From sequence record NC_005066.1: a stretch of 64,000 bases of DNA; one strand, written 5' to 3'. The position numbers were made by a program, and so were the translations under genes. Positions 14,955 through 58,961 of this stretch are shown here, one piece after another (positions within the stretch are counted from its first letter, which is position 1; each line of letters starts with the position of its first letter). The DNA comes from Escherichia phage RB49. The notes beneath the pieces were generated by a model, which ran no database searches, was not told where the DNA came from, and saw only the letters and a list, made by a program, of their open reading frames with translations.

Positions 14955-15022
14955 GTTTGATTCTCCTTTCGTTTCGGTATGGGTGCATTATAGGGGATCG
15001 GTGACCCCCTGTCAACAACTTT
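14955..15022 (-). promoter_or_regulatory. PeSL-like early promoter cassette with stem-loop
   Basis: gattctcc...gtttcggtatgggtgcattat AGGGGATCGGTGACCCCCT gtcaacaactttt. Confidence 0.65.
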
Positions 15023-17078: not shown

Positions 17079-17158
17079 TGTTTGATTCTCCTAAGTGGTA
17101 TCTCGTCTTGATGGTTGTATTGTAGGGGAGTTATCCTCCCCTGTCAACACTTTTTATA
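17079..17158 (-). promoter_or_regulatory. PeSL-like early promoter cassette
   Basis: gattctcctaagtggtatctcgtcttgatgg...GGGGAGttatcCTCCCC tgtcaacac. Confidence 0.65.
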
Positions 17159-17329: not shown

Positions 17330-17400
17330 TTTGATTCTCCTATTTCGTTTCGGTATGTGTGTATTATAGGGGATCTCCCGATCCCCGTCAACAACTTTTT
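17330..17400 (-). promoter_or_regulatory. PeSL-like early promoter cassette
   Basis: ttgattctcc...tcgtttcggtatgtgtgtattat AGGGGATCtcccGATCCCC gtcaacaactttttt. Confidence 0.65.
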
Positions 17401-21655: not shown

Positions 21656-21723
21656 TTTTGATTCTCCTATATCTCGTTGGTATGTGTGCATTATAGGGGA
21701 TCACCGATCCCCTGTCAACAACT
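21656..21723 (-). promoter_or_regulatory. PeSL-like early promoter cassette
   Basis: tttgattctcc...AGGGGATCaccGATCCCCT gtcaacaacttt. Confidence 0.65.
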
Positions 21724-22800: not shown

Positions 22801-22872
22801 AATTGATTCTCCTAGTTCGTTTCGGTATGTGTGTAGTATAGGGGATCGGTGATCCCCTGTCAACAACTTTTT
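22801..22872 (-). promoter_or_regulatory. PeSL-like early promoter cassette
   Basis: aattgattctcc...tcgtttcggtatgtgtgtagtat AGGGGATCggtGATCCCCT gtcaacaactttttt. Confidence 0.65.
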
Positions 22873-23202: not shown

Positions 23203-23285
23203 TTTTGATTCTCCGTTTAAGAAAGTGTGTTTCGTTTTGATGTGTGTAGTATAGGGGATACGTGATCCCCTGTCAACAACTTTTT
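23203..23285 (-). promoter_or_regulatory. PeSL-like early promoter cassette
   Basis: ttttgattctcc...AGGGGATacgtGATCCCCT gtcaacaacttttttg. Confidence 0.65.
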
Positions 23286-32314: not shown

Positions 32315-32791
32315 TTAATCATGACCGTGATTTGCAATATCCGCTCGCGTCTTATCTTTGTGATTTCCTACGTCAAAGACACGATAACCATTTTCACGCA
32401 AAACTTTAATCACTTCTGGGTTATCCTCAAAGACTCCGACAACTTCATCTTTATCAAAGGATTTAATTACCTCTAATTTGATGTGATAGTCTTTACGGGA
32501 ATCGGTACGGCCTCTCATAAAGATTTTATCAAAACACACCCCGTTAGAAATTAACCAATCAATTGTTTCCATGTAAGCATGTGAACTTCGTCCGGTGAGG
32601 ATGTAAATCAAATGCCCGTTGTCGGAAAGAGCATTAATAACACGAATTACATCGTAAATGGGGGAATCTCCCCCACATGCCTTGTTATATTCGATCCATG
32701 ACTCAACTTTATCAAGATTTTCGGTTGGCATCTTTGCTAGTCGATGTGTTGGATCTGTGATCGTAAAATCTAAATCGACAAAATATATCAT
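32315..32791 (-). CDS. HAD-superfamily phosphatase (possible nucleotidase)
   Basis: N-terminal VDLDFTIT (DxDxT) motif; sits in nucleotide-metabolism cluster. Confidence 0.6.
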   Translation of the reverse strand: MIYFVDLDFTITDPTHRLAKMPTENLDKVESWIEYNKACGGDSPIYDVIRVINALSDNGHLIYILTGRSSHAYMETIDWLISNGVCFDKIFMRGRTDSRKDYHIKLEVIKSFDKDEVVGVFEDNPEVIKVLRENGYRVFDVGNHKDKTRADIANHGHD

Positions 32792-33948
32792 AGATATTTC
32801 CCGAATCGGTTGTAGTCTTCGTCTGTTAAATCGGTATTAACCTGAGATACCAGATACATAATCTCTACTTCCTGCGCTGCATTCTGTACTTCGTCAGAGT
32901 TCAACCATTTACGCATCCACGGTAACGGATGACGACGAACACTAAACGGGCTTTTCAGTCCGGCAGCGCGCATACGGGAATCTGCCAGGTATTCTACATA
33001 GGTTTTCAGAATTTCCGGTGACAGGTTAGGAATTGCCCCCATTGCGAATAAGTGGTCTACCCATTCTTTTTCTTGCTCGACAACATCCAGAAAGATTTTC
33101 GTTGCTTCGCCTTCAAGTTCTTCCGCAATCTGTTTCCACTCATCACCATCAACCCCCGTTTGCCATTGACGAATAATGTATTGTGTGCCTTTTAAGTGAA
33201 GTTGTTCATCACGCGCAATAAATTTCATGATCTTCGCGTTACCTTCCAGTAAACCACGTTCGGCAAAGCTGAAAGTACATGCAAAGGACACATAAAAACG
33301 GATTGCTTCCAGTGCATTTACGCAGTGTGCACACAGATAAATCGAAGCCATCAGATCTCGTTTTGTGTCTTCAAAAAATCTTCGCGCATCATCTAATGCT
33401 GTCTGGTCGTCTCGTTCTTCCCAATAGCGGAGATCTTCTTTTGCATTCTCATACTTACGAATCCAATAAAGAACATCATCATAATATTTCCCGATAGATT
33501 CCGCTCGCTTCATGATAGCAGGGTTATCGATGATCTGGTCGAACTCACTAGCCGGATCAATGAAACAGTTACGCATAATGTGTGTATAGCTTCGGCTATG
33601 AATCGTTTCGCTGAATGTCCATGTTTGCAACCATGTATCGAGAGTTGGATCAGATACAATTGGACCAAATGCTGCGGACGGTGCGCGACCTTGAATAGAA
33701 TCAAGTAATGTCTGATACTTCAAGTTTTCAGTAAAGAAACGCTTTTCAACGTCACCCATATTAAGATATTGAATACGGTCGGTTGCAAGTGAAATTTCTT
33801 CTGGACGCCAGAAAAATGACAATTGCTTTTCGATCAGTTCTTCAAATACTTGATGACGCTGAATATCATAGCGAGCGATACCCAACCCACTACCCAGAAA
33901 CATTGGTTCGTTCATAATATCAACATGTTCGCGGTTAAATACGCTCAT
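32788..33948 (-). CDS. nrdB: ribonucleotide reductase class Ia small subunit
   Basis: 386 aa; di-iron/tyrosyl radical family features (ExxH motifs), adjacent to nrdA. Confidence 0.85.
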   Translation of the reverse strand: MSVFNREHVDIMNEPMFLGSGLGIARYDIQRHQVFEELIEKQLSFFWRPEEISLATDRIQYLNMGDVEKRFFTENLKYQTLLDSIQGRAPSAAFGPIVSDPTLDTWLQTWTFSETIHSRSYTHIMRNCFIDPASEFDQIIDNPAIMKRAESIGKYYDDVLYWIRKYENAKEDLRYWEERDDQTALDDARRFFEDTKRDLMASIYLCAHCVNALEAIRFYVSFACTFSFAERGLLEGNAKIMKFIARDEQLHLKGTQYIIRQWQTGVDGDEWKQIAEELEGEATKIFLDVVEQEKEWVDHLFAMGAIPNLSPEILKTYVEYLADSRMRAAGLKSPFSVRRHPLPWMRKWLNSDEVQNAAQEVEIMYLVSQVNTDLTDEDYNRFGKYL

Positions 33949-33963
33949 TAATTCACCTCACTA

Positions 33964-34131
33964 TCACTTTTTAACACAAAAGAACTTAGTATTTCTGTTT
34001 ATTTCGCTATCCTGCTGCAATTCCTGCACAGCTTCAAAACAATTTTGATATGATGAAAACTCTACGCTGGTAACAGTTCCTTTATTATATACGCCGACGC
34101 TAACGGAAAGCAATAACCATAATGTAGCCAT
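33964..34131 (-). CDS. small hydrophobic-N-terminus protein (55 aa), paralog 1
   Basis: MATLWLLLSVSVGVYNKGTVTSVEF...; TAATG junction with upstream ORF; SD before nrdB follows. Confidence 0.45.
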   Translation of the reverse strand: MATLWLLLSVSVGVYNKGTVTSVEFSSYQNCFEAVQELQQDSEINRNTKFFCVKK

Positions 34132-34304
34132 TAGTTCACCTTTTGTTTTTCAACGCAATATAGATTCATAAAGCGTTTATTGTCTTCGCGGATAATCTCG
34201 CGAGCTTTAACGCAATCCTGCTTTGTTGCAAACTCAATGCTTGACATATTTCCGTAATTATACATTGAATTGCTTATTGCAATCAATAACCATACAGTAG
34301 CCAT
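34131..34304 (-). CDS. small hydrophobic-N-terminus protein (57 aa), paralog 2
   Basis: MATVWLLIAISNSMYNYGNMSSIEF...; TAATG junctions. Confidence 0.45.
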   Translation of the reverse strand: MATVWLLIAISNSMYNYGNMSSIEFATKQDCVKAREIIREDNKRFMNLYCVEKQKVN

Positions 34305-34471
34305 TATCCGACAACCTCAAAACATTTATCATCAGGAAGAATCGCCCATTCTACACCGTATTCATCCTCGACGTAGTAGCAAGTCCCATCATGTCGAGCA
34401 TCATATTCATCACCAACAACAAAGCTATCAGCTAGTTCAAAATCTACAGCAACACATTTTAATTTGGTCAT
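34304..34471 (-). CDS. small acidic protein (55 aa)
   Basis: MTKLKCVAVDFELADSF...; track ORF is extended into the PeSL. Confidence 0.5.
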   Translation of the reverse strand: MTKLKCVAVDFELADSFVVGDEYDARHDGTCYYVEDEYGVEWAILPDDKCFEVVG

Positions 34472-34539
34472 AATAAAATCCTCACTTGTTTTTGATGGTT
34501 GTATTATAGCGGGGATTTCTCCCCGCGTCAACACTTATT
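34472..34539 (-). promoter_or_regulatory. PeSL-like early promoter cassette (abuts nrdA stop)
   Basis: aatcctcac...ttgtattat aGCGGGGAtttcTCCCCGC gtcaacactt. Confidence 0.6.
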
Positions 34540-36783
34540 TTACAGCTTGCAAGATGAGCACTCGCTAGCGTCTTCCGTACCATCAGCACCATCACGCACG
34601 TTAGCGTAATACAGGGTTTTCAGACCGTAATATTGAGCAAACAGCATATCATCTAACACATCAGCAATATCGACTTTACCAGTCTTATAAGTGCTTGGAT
34701 CGTATGATGTATTGGAACTAATCGCCTGATCCACAAACTTCTGCATGATCGCTGCCAGTGTCAGATAAGGCTTGTTACCTTTCTTGATCAGTGTCCAAAG
34801 CAGGTCAATAACATCAGCATTATTCTCTACGTTCGGAATAACCTGATTAAATTGCCCTTCTTTCGATCCTTTAACCGATACAATCCCGCGAGGCGGTTCA
34901 ATACCATTTGTGCTGTTAGACACCTGAGAGGACGACTCACAAGGCATCAGCGCCGACAGTGTACTGTTACGAATGCCATATTTTTTCAGGTCTTTGCGCA
35001 GTTCTTCCCAATCCATCTCATACACCGGATCAACCAGTTCATCTACTGTCTTTTTGTACCAGTCGATAGGCAGTTCACCGCGTCCATAACGTGTTTCGTG
35101 CATCAGTTCGCAAGCACCCTTCTCTTTAGCCAGTTGCACACTAGCCTTAATCAGAGCATATTGCAAGCGTTCAAACGTTTTATGCGTAAACTCGTTAGCG
35201 TCTTCATATGTGAAGAAATTATCCGCTAGATATGACGCAAAGTTAGTCACACCAACACCCAGAGAGCGACGTTTTTTGGCTGTTAGAGCTTGTTCTACAG
35301 GATAATCCTGATAATCTAACAGGTTGTCCAGTGCACGCACCATAACCATAGCAATGCGTTCTACTTCTTCCATATTTTCGATATCGAAATTACCTAAAAC
35401 ATATGCTGCCAAAGTACATAGGCTAATTTCTGAATCATCACGACCCATCGGTTTAGTAGGCAGTGCAATTTCACAACACAGGTTAGATTGTTTAATCGGT
35501 GCTACATTACGAATAAACGCCCCGTGATTGTTCATGTTGTCTGTGAACGTTGGGTAGATTCGACCAGTGTTAAAACGTTCAATTGCCACCGCTAAAAACA
35601 GGTCTTCGGCTTTAACACGAGTTTTACGAACACTCGGATCTTTTTCCAGTTTTTCGTAAAGCTGGCGGAAACCTTCCTCATCTCGGAAGTATAGATCCCA
35701 CAACAAGCCACCCGCAACATCTGGACTAAACAGAGTAATGTAATCCCGTTTAAGGAATCGCTCTACCATCAGGTTATTAATCTGTACGCCGTAATCAAGA
35801 TGACGAATGCGGTTATCTTCCACCCCCTTATTGTTCTTTAACACAATCAGACTTTCAAACTCTAAATGCCACATTGGGTAATAGAGAGTCGCCGCCCCGC
35901 CACGAATACCGCCTTGTGAGCATGACTTAACGGCAGTCTGAAAATGTTTCCAGAATGGGATAACGCCAGTATGACGAACTTCACCATGCCCGATCTTAGA
36001 TCCTTCCGCGCGAATCATACCAGCGTTGATACCGATGCCAGCACGCTTGCTAATATACTTGATGATTGCATTTGCTGTTTCGTTGATGCCCTGCAATGAG
36101 TCATCACTTTCAATCACCACGCACGAACTAAATTGTCGTGTTGGAGTACGCACACCCGCCATAATCGGAGTAGGCAGAGAGATTTGCTTATTCGCAACAG
36201 CATTATAAAAATCAATCACATGTTCAAGTCTATTTTCTGTCTCTTCTTGATGTAAGCACATACCGATCAGCATATACGCAAATTGCGGTGTTTCGATGAT
36301 TTTCTTAGTGCTGCGATCCTGAACAAGATATTTCTCTTTTAACTGCATCGCACCAGCATAGGTCATTTTAAAATCAAGTTTATGGTCGATGAATTTCTCC
36401 AGATATTCCACTTCTTCACGGGAATACTTTTGCAGAATTTCGCGATCATATTTTCCGGTTGCAATATTACGCTCAATATGGCTGTAAAAATCAATCGGTT
36501 GGAATTGACCGTATACTGATTTGCGAAGCGCGAACATTGCAAGGTTACTTGCTACATATTGATAATCGGGCGTTTCTACCGTGATGTTATCTGCGGCGAC
36601 CTTAATCAATACTTTCTGGATATCATTGGTAGACATACCTTCTGTCAGAAGTGGTTCAACCATATCAAACAATTCATATGGATCAACGTTATGACCTTCG
36701 GCTGCCGCTTCCAGAATTTTCATTACTTTTTCTTTTTCAAACGGAACAGTCAGACCGGAAGACTTAACAACATTTTTAATCAT
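34540..36783 (-). CDS. nrdA: ribonucleotide reductase class Ia large subunit
   Basis: 747 aa; NLCCEIALP active-site motif; C-terminal Cys pair (CSSCKL). Confidence 0.9.
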   Translation of the reverse strand: MIKNVVKSSGLTVPFEKEKVMKILEAAAEGHNVDPYELFDMVEPLLTEGMSTNDIQKVLIKVAADNITVETPDYQYVASNLAMFALRKSVYGQFQPIDFYSHIERNIATGKYDREILQKYSREEVEYLEKFIDHKLDFKMTYAGAMQLKEKYLVQDRSTKKIIETPQFAYMLIGMCLHQEETENRLEHVIDFYNAVANKQISLPTPIMAGVRTPTRQFSSCVVIESDDSLQGINETANAIIKYISKRAGIGINAGMIRAEGSKIGHGEVRHTGVIPFWKHFQTAVKSCSQGGIRGGAATLYYPMWHLEFESLIVLKNNKGVEDNRIRHLDYGVQINNLMVERFLKRDYITLFSPDVAGGLLWDLYFRDEEGFRQLYEKLEKDPSVRKTRVKAEDLFLAVAIERFNTGRIYPTFTDNMNNHGAFIRNVAPIKQSNLCCEIALPTKPMGRDDSEISLCTLAAYVLGNFDIENMEEVERIAMVMVRALDNLLDYQDYPVEQALTAKKRRSLGVGVTNFASYLADNFFTYEDANEFTHKTFERLQYALIKASVQLAKEKGACELMHETRYGRGELPIDWYKKTVDELVDPVYEMDWEELRKDLKKYGIRNSTLSALMPCESSSQVSNSTNGIEPPRGIVSVKGSKEGQFNQVIPNVENNADVIDLLWTLIKKGNKPYLTLAAIMQKFVDQAISSNTSYDPSTYKTGKVDIADVLDDMLFAQYYGLKTLYYANVRDGADGTEDASECSSCKL

Positions 36784-36851: not shown

Positions 36852-38084
36852 TTATACTGCCATTTGAGCGGTGATTGCTGGATGGCTTTGATAGTTGTGA
36901 ATTTTAAAATCTTTCGGAGTCTTTGTCAATACCTCATCTAAAGATTTAAATTCCGGCAACTCAATTGTTGGTTTATCAAACGGAACACGGCTTAACTGTT
37001 CCATAACTTGATCAAAATGGTTTTTGTAAATGTGAGTATCTCCACCAGAGAAAATCAGTTCTCCTACCTCAAGATCACACATTTTCGCTATGATGTGAGT
37101 TAACAGCGCATAGCTGGCGACGTTAAAGGGCAAGCCCAAAAAGCTGTCTACGCTTCGCTGAAACCACATACAAGACAGTTTACCTTCATTGACGTAGAAT
37201 TGTACGAACGGATGACATACACCCAACACAGCATTATGTGTTCCTTGTACGTTCCATGAGTCAATAATGATCCGGCGATCCGTTGGATTGTTTTTAATTT
37301 GTTCAATCACGTTTTGTAACTGGTCTTCCCAAATCTTCGGGCGATAGACATATTCTTCATCGTCTTTAGTGCTCGATGTGTCTACGTCCATACTAGCAAA
37401 GATCGTGGTATCTGGTGCTAAAATATCCCCACCCAGATAATCACTATCAAGCAGATAACCGAAATAACCATCATCTACCCATTCCTGGAATCCCCACAAG
37501 CAATATGCATCATTAACAAAATTAGATTGAGTCTTCCAGTGGTCTGCTACTAAGAATAGATTATACTCAGAATCAAACTCTTCATAACGCATACCACGCC
37601 AGATAGCACATAAACGGTCTTCTGTTTCATTGGTTGGCGTAAAGTCTTCTACCCACGGGTGTTTAAATGTATGTGTATATTTGCTCTTAACGCGCTTAAT
37701 TTTGATTTCACCGTGTGGATGAATCGGTTTGCGTCGCCATGCCATACCATACATATTACCGACATTATAACCATTGAATCGCAAAGGATTCTTTTCTTTC
37801 ATATCAAGACAGTTGCCGCGCCAAATATCAAAGGCTTCCTCGTCAAACTTACCGCGTGTAATTTCCTGTAAGCGACGGCGGTCAAGTGATCCCTCCATAA
37901 ACCATAGCAACTCGCCAATTACAGAGGCTGTAGCCATCTTTTTAGTGGTCAGTAAGGGGAAACCCTTGCTTAAATCAATTCGCATCTCTGCGCCGAATTT
38001 AGAGAGCGTACCTACCCCCGTGCGGTCTTCACGAGGCCAACCATTATCAAGAACATCACGCAATAGTTTCAAATATTCTTTCAT
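36852..38084 (-). CDS. td: thymidylate synthase with ~125-aa internal insertion
   Basis: Collinear with E. coli ThyA at both ends (RTGVGTLS..., DRRIIIDSWN, CHPFVQFYV..KLSC.W.QRS.D.FLGLPFN.ASYALLTH, GDTHIY, AITAQMAV); extra segment residues ~125-252. Confidence 0.9.
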   Translation of the reverse strand: MKEYLKLLRDVLDNGWPREDRTGVGTLSKFGAEMRIDLSKGFPLLTTKKMATASVIGELLWFMEGSLDRRRLQEITRGKFDEEAFDIWRGNCLDMKEKNPLRFNGYNVGNMYGMAWRRKPIHPHGEIKIKRVKSKYTHTFKHPWVEDFTPTNETEDRLCAIWRGMRYEEFDSEYNLFLVADHWKTQSNFVNDAYCLWGFQEWVDDGYFGYLLDSDYLGGDILAPDTTIFASMDVDTSSTKDDEEYVYRPKIWEDQLQNVIEQIKNNPTDRRIIIDSWNVQGTHNAVLGVCHPFVQFYVNEGKLSCMWFQRSVDSFLGLPFNVASYALLTHIIAKMCDLEVGELIFSGGDTHIYKNHFDQVMEQLSRVPFDKPTIELPEFKSLDEVLTKTPKDFKIHNYQSHPAITAQMAV

Positions 38085-58891: not shown

Positions 58892-58961
58892 TTTGATTCT
58901 CCTTCGTTGTCTTGATGAGTTTAGTATAGGGGATCGCCGATCCCCTGTCAACAACTATTTT
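58892..58961 (-). promoter_or_regulatory. PeSL-like early promoter cassette
   Basis: ttttgattctcc...AGGGGATCgccGATCCCCT gtcaacaactatttttt. Confidence 0.65.

Follow-up and report, generated by a model that had tools for sequence, protein, structure and literature searches.

A known counterpart of the locus described here, the interval between nrdA and nrdB (the genes for the large subunit and the small subunit, respectively, of ribonucleotide reductase, RNR), is that of phage T4, in which the nrdA-nrdB intergenic region holds mobE only. T4-type phages have a dedicated nrdB promoter, situated at the 3' end of nrdA or between the two genes (PMC2790892). A second described system is provided by the promoter-early stem-loops (PeSLs) of phages RB49 and Phi1, representative copies of which are strong promoters as well as terminators and mediate modular shuffling (PMC2839356; PMC4122927); the activity was measured for the 193/192, 206/205 and 211/210 copies (PMC2839356). 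The main texts of the latter two papers mention neither nrdA and nrdB nor ORF231-233, the Phi1 counterparts of three small open reading frames (ORFs) that separate nrdA from nrdB in a 64,000-nucleotide stretch of Escherichia phage RB49 (NC_005066.1), which is referred to below as the window. In the present analysis, these ORFs, here termed ORF1, ORF2 and ORF3, were compared with both systems. The explanation that we prefer, and consider rather probable, is that they form a non-essential, clade-specific cassette of accessory genes for soluble modulators, located behind a PeSL in an insertion hot spot between nrdA and nrdB.

Organization of the nrdA-nrdB interval

The window represents a Krischvirus (RB49/Phi1-like), and more than 50 genomes of that genus (RB49, Phi1, JSE, GEC-3S and others) match a 1.1-kb region of it at 96-99% identity. 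All of the genes in question are encoded on the minus strand. Downstream of nrdA (34540-36783) are located ORF1 (34304-34471; 55 amino acids, beginning with MTKLKCV), ORF2 (34131-34304; 57 amino acids, beginning with MATVWLLIAIS) and ORF3 (33964-34131; 55 amino acids, beginning with MATLWLLLSVS), followed by nrdB (32788-33948). TAATG stop/start overlaps connect ORF1 with ORF2 and ORF2 with ORF3, and the first-pass annotation, which described three chained small ORFs with such junctions, was exact in this respect, coordinates included. It had also placed the ribosome-binding site of nrdB directly after ORF3, which is where we find it: a Shine-Dalgarno sequence, GAGGTGA (33953-33959, minus strand), precedes the ATG of nrdB (33946-33948, minus strand), 15 nt past the TGA of ORF3. 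Each of the small ORFs has its own purine-rich Shine-Dalgarno sequence, which in ORF1 is GAGGA. The ORF listing contains an alternative form of ORF1, 76 amino acids long, which has a GTG start upstream of the promoter described below and no Shine-Dalgarno sequence; nearly all public annotations start ORF1 at the ATG at 34471. The TAATG chaining itself is not distinctive, as the window's coding strand shows eight TAATG and 14 ATGA junctions among ORFs of 40 codons or more, and it represents routine phage gene packing in an RB49-like genome.

Coding status of the three small ORFs

The existing annotations of more than 50 Krischvirus genomes already include ORF1 to ORF3, as hypothetical proteins. 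In Phi1 (ORF233/232/231) and in RB49 (gp233/232/231), the same genes appear in the same order, with 87-100% protein identity to ORF1-3. The hidden Markov model (HMM) of phrog_5579 matches ORF2 and ORF3 over 52 of its 52 positions (E=6.8e-24 and 5.7e-24, respectively), and ORF1 matches that of phrog_16302 over its full length. The genes are no different from these counterparts and PHROG entries, for which neither a function nor a fold or family is described in the databases. Searches of Pfam, NCBIfam, PADLOC, the PDB sequences and Rfam produced no match for any of the three ORFs, except for a sub-threshold Pfam hit of ORF1 to DUF7244 (E=0.023, below the family cut-off). The literature search returned no Krischvirus expression data and no mention of ORF1-3 or of their PHROGs. 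The genes and the PeSL cassette are already contained in public annotations and literature.

The ratio of nonsynonymous to synonymous substitution (dN/dS, Nei-Gojobori) was calculated for 14-18 Krischvirus loci and summed over pairs, which are not phylogenetically independent. In the annotated frame it is 0.18 for ORF1, 0.054 for ORF2 and 0.17 for ORF3, versus 0.9-3.7 in both of the shifted frames; for the flanking 600 nt of nrdA and nrdB it amounts to 0.02 and 0.19, respectively. The difference between the frames is nonetheless clear-cut, and all three ORFs are, as judged from sequence comparison, real protein-coding genes under purifying selection, with predicted products of ~6 kDa. Conservation in relatives, which the first-pass annotation had named as a check, is found among Krischvirus nrdA-nrdB intervals, both in the annotations and in the pattern of selection.

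The PeSL between nrdA and ORF1

The PeSL cassette (34503..34531, minus strand) begins 8 nt past the nrdA stop codon and has the form TTGACG-CGGGGAGAAATCCCCGC-TATAAT. The promoter scan scored 11 of 12 sigma70 matches with a 17-nt spacer, and the spacer is filled by a GC hairpin (GCGGGGA-GAAA-TCCCCGC, ~34509-34526), which forms the core of both the minimum-free-energy and the centroid RNA folds (z=-2.98). The 29-mer is identical in all Krischvirus loci examined but that of Makalu_003, where the -10 box is TATACT, and an exact copy is present in a metagenomic relative whose overall identity is only ~73%. Public annotations at this site record a promoter in GEC-3S and a terminator in Makalu_003. 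Between the PeSL and nrdB, no terminator-like site was detected in the window scan.

Like the published PeSLs (Arbiol et al. 2010, PMC2839356; Comeau et al. 2014, PMC4122927), the nrdA/nrdB copy has a sigma70 promoter close to the consensus and, between its -35 and -10 boxes, a Gn-loop-Cn hairpin; it is also intergenic, directly precedes the Shine-Dalgarno sequence and ATG of uncharacterised small ORFs, and is associated with indels among close relatives. The features by which a PeSL is recognized (promoter, hairpin, intergenic site with a small ORF, and indels) are therefore all present at this copy, the activity being known from other copies. Unlike the published PeSLs, it is situated in the core nucleotide-metabolism block rather than in a hyperplastic region, and it probably doubles as the promoter of nrdB. 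The window contains at least eight GGGG-loop-CCCC promoters of the PeSL type.

The arrangement may also be compared with that of T4. As with mobE, the same slot tolerates foreign DNA and is provided with a separate nrdB promoter just upstream, and homing endonucleases enter it in the Krischvirus isolates PTE-Eco09, phiS, G37-3 and AV108. Unlike mobE, ORF1-3 are not endonucleases (Pfam finds no HNH domain in them), and the promoter at the Krischvirus slot is of the early sigma70 type and not a MotA-dependent middle promoter. No sequence similarity was found between ORF1-3 and either mobE or nrdA.1/nrdA.2 of T4 (no T4-type matches for ORF1 and ORF3 in tblastn searches of 50,697 phage records). 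The first-pass annotation was right in that the content of the interval differs from that of T4; it had, however, assigned nrdA.1/nrdA.2 to the T4 interval together with a mobile endonuclease, and this part must be corrected, since T4 has mobE alone there and in the T4-type phage RB51 nrdA.1 overlaps the start of nrdA and is hence upstream of it. In RB51, Wolf_ER13 and VR26, which belong to other T4-like genera, nrdA and nrdB are directly adjacent, and the insertion is therefore regarded as clade-specific.

Natural variation of the slot

In T4-like phages the nrdA-nrdB slot is a hot spot for insertions, and in Krischvirus also for recombination. In KMB43 (L002 1770-2696), an 852-bp gene for a DNA-cytosine methyltransferase is located between nrdA and ORF1 and is bracketed by two identical 29-bp PeSLs, a textbook case of PeSL-mediated cassette insertion. 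The annotations of Delraymugoa and Aragogtheria likewise show a DNA methyltransferase, covered by a match of ~2 kb to the query that retrieved KMB43. On the other side of the small ORFs, the gap between ORF3 and nrdB is occupied by an HNH homing endonuclease in PTE-Eco09 and phiS, and G37-3 carries a 179-amino-acid HNH_3+AP2 endonuclease between its small ORFs and nrdB. The endonuclease loci of Krischvirus isolates are L003 2407-3054, L026 1438-2085, L017 1379-1918 and L043 1580-2227, and two free-standing types of homing endonuclease occur just upstream of nrdB, namely a 215-amino-acid HNH enzyme and the HNH_3+AP2 enzyme of G37-3. Where the 215-amino-acid endonuclease is present, the N-terminus of NrdB reads MGNTVFN instead of MSVFN, which suggests co-conversion with the endonuclease.

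The small ORFs themselves are also subject to loss. FL20 and G37-3 lack ORF2, and the single gene that remains begins with the ORF2 ATGGCTACTGTATGGTTATTG and continues as ORF3. As the 5' start of ORF2 stands on the body of ORF3, the crossover must have occurred inside the shared 5' stretch; near-identity of the ORF2 and ORF3 DNA is confined to the first 21 nt (19 of 21 identical). A metagenomic sequence (P0029) codes for a 44-amino-acid ORF2/ORF3 chimera that is out of register. In AV108, both ORF2 and ORF3 are missing, and ORF1 runs straight into the nrdB-leader sequence, followed by the endonuclease gene. ORF1 has been damaged independently at least four times, by a stop at codon 12 (G37-3), by a +T shared by kaaroe and FL04, by a 2-nt deletion common to FL20 and FL37, and by a different +T in AV108. 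In GEC-3S (L021 840-1028), ORF1 contains an in-frame 21-nt tandem duplication (DVYDARR/DEYDARH), which results in a 62-amino-acid product. Because natural isolates (FL20, G37-3 and AV108) lack genes and ORF1 lesions recur, none of ORF1-3 is essential for a viable isolate.

The ORF2/ORF3 family

ORF2 and ORF3 are 38% identical over their full length (BLASTP, E=6e-16), with identity at 21 of the 53 aligned residues, and both match phrog_5579. They had been called tandem paralogs on account of their similar N-termini; the homology is upheld, and a recent tandem duplication was rejected, as the two proteins are as distant from each other as from family members in other phages. Each of them is 47-51% identical to single-copy homologues in related phages (P0028 and P0030) and in other phages (P0031 and P0032). 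On the basis of these comparisons, ORF2 and ORF3 are anciently diverged members of one widespread phage family. The window contains no further paralogs of either this family or that of ORF1.

Word-indexed protein searches retrieved Krischvirus relatives only, and the wider family became visible only by profile search. When 1.84 billion representatives were searched exhaustively with a HMMER profile (cut-off E<=1e-3), 67 clusters (clustering at 50% identity) were obtained, nearly all of which represent proteins of 42-76 amino acids. Among the 64 wider family members that were aligned, 53 match phrog_5579. The only invariant columns of this alignment are two Cys residues (C31 and C52 in ORF3, C31 and C50 in ORF2), and L7, G18 and F25 are nearly invariant. 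Exactly two Cys residues, separated by ~20 positions, are found in 61 of the 64 sequences. The family has no match in Pfam, NCBIfam, PADLOC or the PDB sequences. A scan of bacterial genomes found nothing, and a metagenome scan added only Krischvirus fragments. In scans of IMG/VR, the close clade was represented by two Krischvirus contigs only and the distant subgroup by none.

The AlphaFold2 model of ORF3, calculated from the 64-sequence alignment, has a mean predicted local distance difference test score (pLDDT) of 96.3 and a predicted template modelling score of 0.76, and its first ten residues average a pLDDT of 92. The predicted elements are b1 (residues 5-11), b2 (20-25), a1 (28-39), a2 (42-47) and b3 (48-54), so that the hydrophobic N-terminus is modelled as a core strand of a compact beta-beta-alpha-alpha-beta domain. 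Structural neighbours indicate that this fold is common to many uncharacterised phage proteins of 50-70 amino acids, and the nearest known folds are small ferredoxin-like or split beta-alpha-beta mini-domains (the periplasmic domain of MzrA, 4pwu; ClpS; AcrIC8; AcrIIC3). The amino acid variation of ORF3 clusters in the helices, and a test for diversifying selection on these was negative (dN/dS 0.19). According to the model, ORF2 and ORF3 are soluble alpha/beta mini-proteins rather than membrane proteins, and they would be cytoplasmic.

Genomic context of the family and features of ORF1

In L004, a Krischvirus-like metagenomic phage with ~73% identity to Krischvirus, the gene order is gp32, frd, td, DUF4326, nrdA, PeSL, P0028 and nrdB. 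The nrdA gene of this phage is divided by an I-HmuI/NUMOD-like endonuclease gene (L004 2753-5940) into ORFs of 476 and 324 amino acids, an arrangement that resembles the reportedly fragmented nrdA of Aeromonas phage Aeh1. P0030 is TAATG-chained to an upstream ORF and ends 12 nt before an nrdB of the Krischvirus type. Other family members occur in very different surroundings: beside NinG in a lambdoid-like array, near Dam, among small ORFs beside a GIY-YIG gene, between NAPRTase and Macro-domain genes, between a DegT-like gene and a NeuB gene, in the end region of the T1-like phage JeanPiccard, where the genes are tiny, and within the early region in an Autographiviridae phage. Linkage of the family to nrd genes is limited to the Krischvirus-like clade. 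The members beside the DegT-like and NeuB genes (L036 5318-6818, on an 82-kb contig) and beside the NAPRTase and Macro-domain genes (L034 2-1742) are wedged in with overlapping start and stop codons; this placement between metabolic genes mirrors that between nrdA and nrdB, and it may be a coincidence.

ORF1 is an acidic protein (isoelectric point 4.05, with 14 Asp or Glu versus four Lys or Arg residues) that contains three conserved Cys residues. The tblastn searches with ORF1 and ORF3 (E<=0.01) retrieved only Krischvirus and two unrelated small phages, and ORF1 is restricted to Krischvirus. Remote kinship of ORF1 with ORF2 and ORF3 was considered and rejected (hhalign probability 0.3%). ORF1 has no match in the PDB, and a single-sequence AlphaFold prediction was uninformative (pLDDT 44).

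Possible roles of the cassette and alternative explanations

In the explanation that we prefer, the PeSL just past nrdA would attenuate read-through from nrdA and restart transcription, giving an ORF1-ORF2-ORF3-nrdB message; the simplest interpretation of the locus is a probable early operon of this composition. The three small genes, each with its own Shine-Dalgarno sequence, would be translationally coupled through their TAATG overlaps. ORF2 and ORF3 would represent alpha/beta mini-domains of ~50-70 amino acids, stabilised by, or acting through, their two invariant Cys residues. By analogy with the small genes that usually occupy PeSL cassettes, we infer that ORF1-3 are most probably early-expressed proteins that bind or modulate a host or phage protein, and not subunits of RNR.

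A more sceptical explanation would be that the ORFs are spurious and that the 0.5 kb between nrdA and nrdB serves nrdB as a conserved leader or regulatory region that is not translated, in which the frames are open by chance. Speaking for it are the shortness of the ORFs, the literature search, which returned no expression data, and the disrupted ORF1 of several genomes; however, the strong purifying selection is specific to the frame, a Shine-Dalgarno sequence is found at each ORF, Rfam gives no match at a meaningful score, and the 67 clusters of the ORF2/ORF3 family, though diverged, keep a conserved pattern, with a fold that is confidently predicted. This explanation is hardly credible for the locus as a whole and is effectively refuted for ORF2 and ORF3. 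The first-pass annotation accepted the ORFs and described ORF2 and ORF3 as probably membrane-anchored, in which case the N-terminus would be a transmembrane helix or signal peptide, the proteins would be anchored or secreted, and the Cys pair would form a periplasmic disulfide. The motif MATxWLL(I/L)xxS, followed by small residues (S-x-G/S/A), does look like a signal-peptidase site, and an invariant Cys pair would be in keeping with an oxidising compartment. A membrane span would call for ~19 residues with a Kyte-Doolittle value of at least ~1.6, however, and the maximum over 19 residues is 0.61 in ORF2 and 1.07 in ORF3 (family median 0.92), with just two of the 64 family members reaching 1.6. 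The apolar N-terminal run comprises only 11-15 residues (family median 13), and a positively charged n-region is rare in the family (eight of 64 sequences, versus 52 uncharged and four acidic). Residues 5-11 are, moreover, modelled with high confidence as a core beta-strand, and without this strand only a two-stranded sheet would be left. Because the N-terminus is modelled as a core strand and the hydrophobicity values are low, the membrane anchor is unsupported; a membrane or secreted location was thus already disfavoured, and we consider it very doubtful.

Another possibility is that ORF2, ORF3 and their single-copy homologues are accessory factors of RNR, in which the Cys pair would act as a reducing dithiol or would ligate a metal or Fe-S cluster, for reduction of NrdA or upkeep of the NrdB cofactor, making them functional analogues of NrdH, glutaredoxin or YfaE. 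In three diverged lineages, a gene of the family directly precedes nrdB and is coupled to it, and no residues other than the two Cys are invariant among the 64 homologues. From the topology of the model, it is plausible that C31, at the start of helix a1, and C52, towards the C-terminal end of b3, share one edge of the fold. On the other hand, outside the Krischvirus clade no RNR genes were found in the ~1-6 kb of sampled flanks, some of the contigs being only 1.8-2.8 kb long. The proteins contain neither a CXXC motif nor the four-Cys pattern of ferredoxins and match nothing in Pfam or NCBIfam, and neither thioredoxin- or ferredoxin-type proteins nor glutaredoxin, NrdH, YfaE or NrdI appear among the structural neighbours. 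The slot is empty in other T4-like genera, and AV108, which lacks both ORF2 and ORF3, is viable, as are FL20 and G37-3, which lack ORF2. Since the aerobic RNR of T4 is itself non-essential, this dispensability counts only as weak evidence against an RNR helper. On balance, we regard an accessory role in RNR function as unlikely. A bolder version, to which we assign a very low probability, would see the family as undescribed phage Cys-pair mini-proteins, redox-active or metal-bridging, that were recruited next to nrdB for the benefit of RNR and possibly act as an ORF2-ORF3 heterodimer; if this were true, the family would reduce NrdA or maintain the NrdB cofactor in Krischvirus-like phages.

With the cassette interpreted as a set of accessory genes, its weight for genome biology is small, as the genes are ordinary, the cassette is of a known type and the junctions are routine. 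What is gained is that ORF2 and ORF3 are no longer to be taken for membrane proteins, and that two "hypothetical proteins" become members of a defined family of ~55 amino acids, with 67 clusters across unrelated phages, which could merit a Pfam entry and a biochemical look. The natural variants also document the nrdA-nrdB hot spot (a methyltransferase, two kinds of endonuclease, loss of ORF2 and loss of the paralog pair), and AV108, FL20 and G37-3 constitute ready-made material for probing the function of the genes.

Neighbouring genes and further PeSL-type sites

The nrdB stop codon is overlapped (ATGA) by a gene for a 158-amino-acid protein (32315-32791, minus strand), which is labelled "polynucleotide kinase" in several relatives. 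The only domain matched in this protein is a PNKP-type phosphatase domain of the HAD type, and no kinase domain was detected in it. On the other side of nrdA is located td (36852-38084, minus strand), which codes for a thymidylate synthase of 410 amino acids. Its match to the Pfam family Thymidylat_synt is in two parts, with residues 254-410 corresponding to profile positions 110-266, which implies an insertion of ~140 amino acids in the middle of the enzyme; the td product of L004 is likewise long (412 amino acids).

The PeSL-type pattern has 28 matches in the window, versus 2.95 expected. Further promoters of this type, all on the minus strand, are located at 14987-15015, 17119-17147, 17363-17391, 21690-21718, 22835-22863, 23248-23276 and 58923-58951. 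They combine TTGACA/G with a GGGG-loop-CCCC hairpin and TATAAT/TATACT, and they are clustered in regions that are probably hyperplastic.
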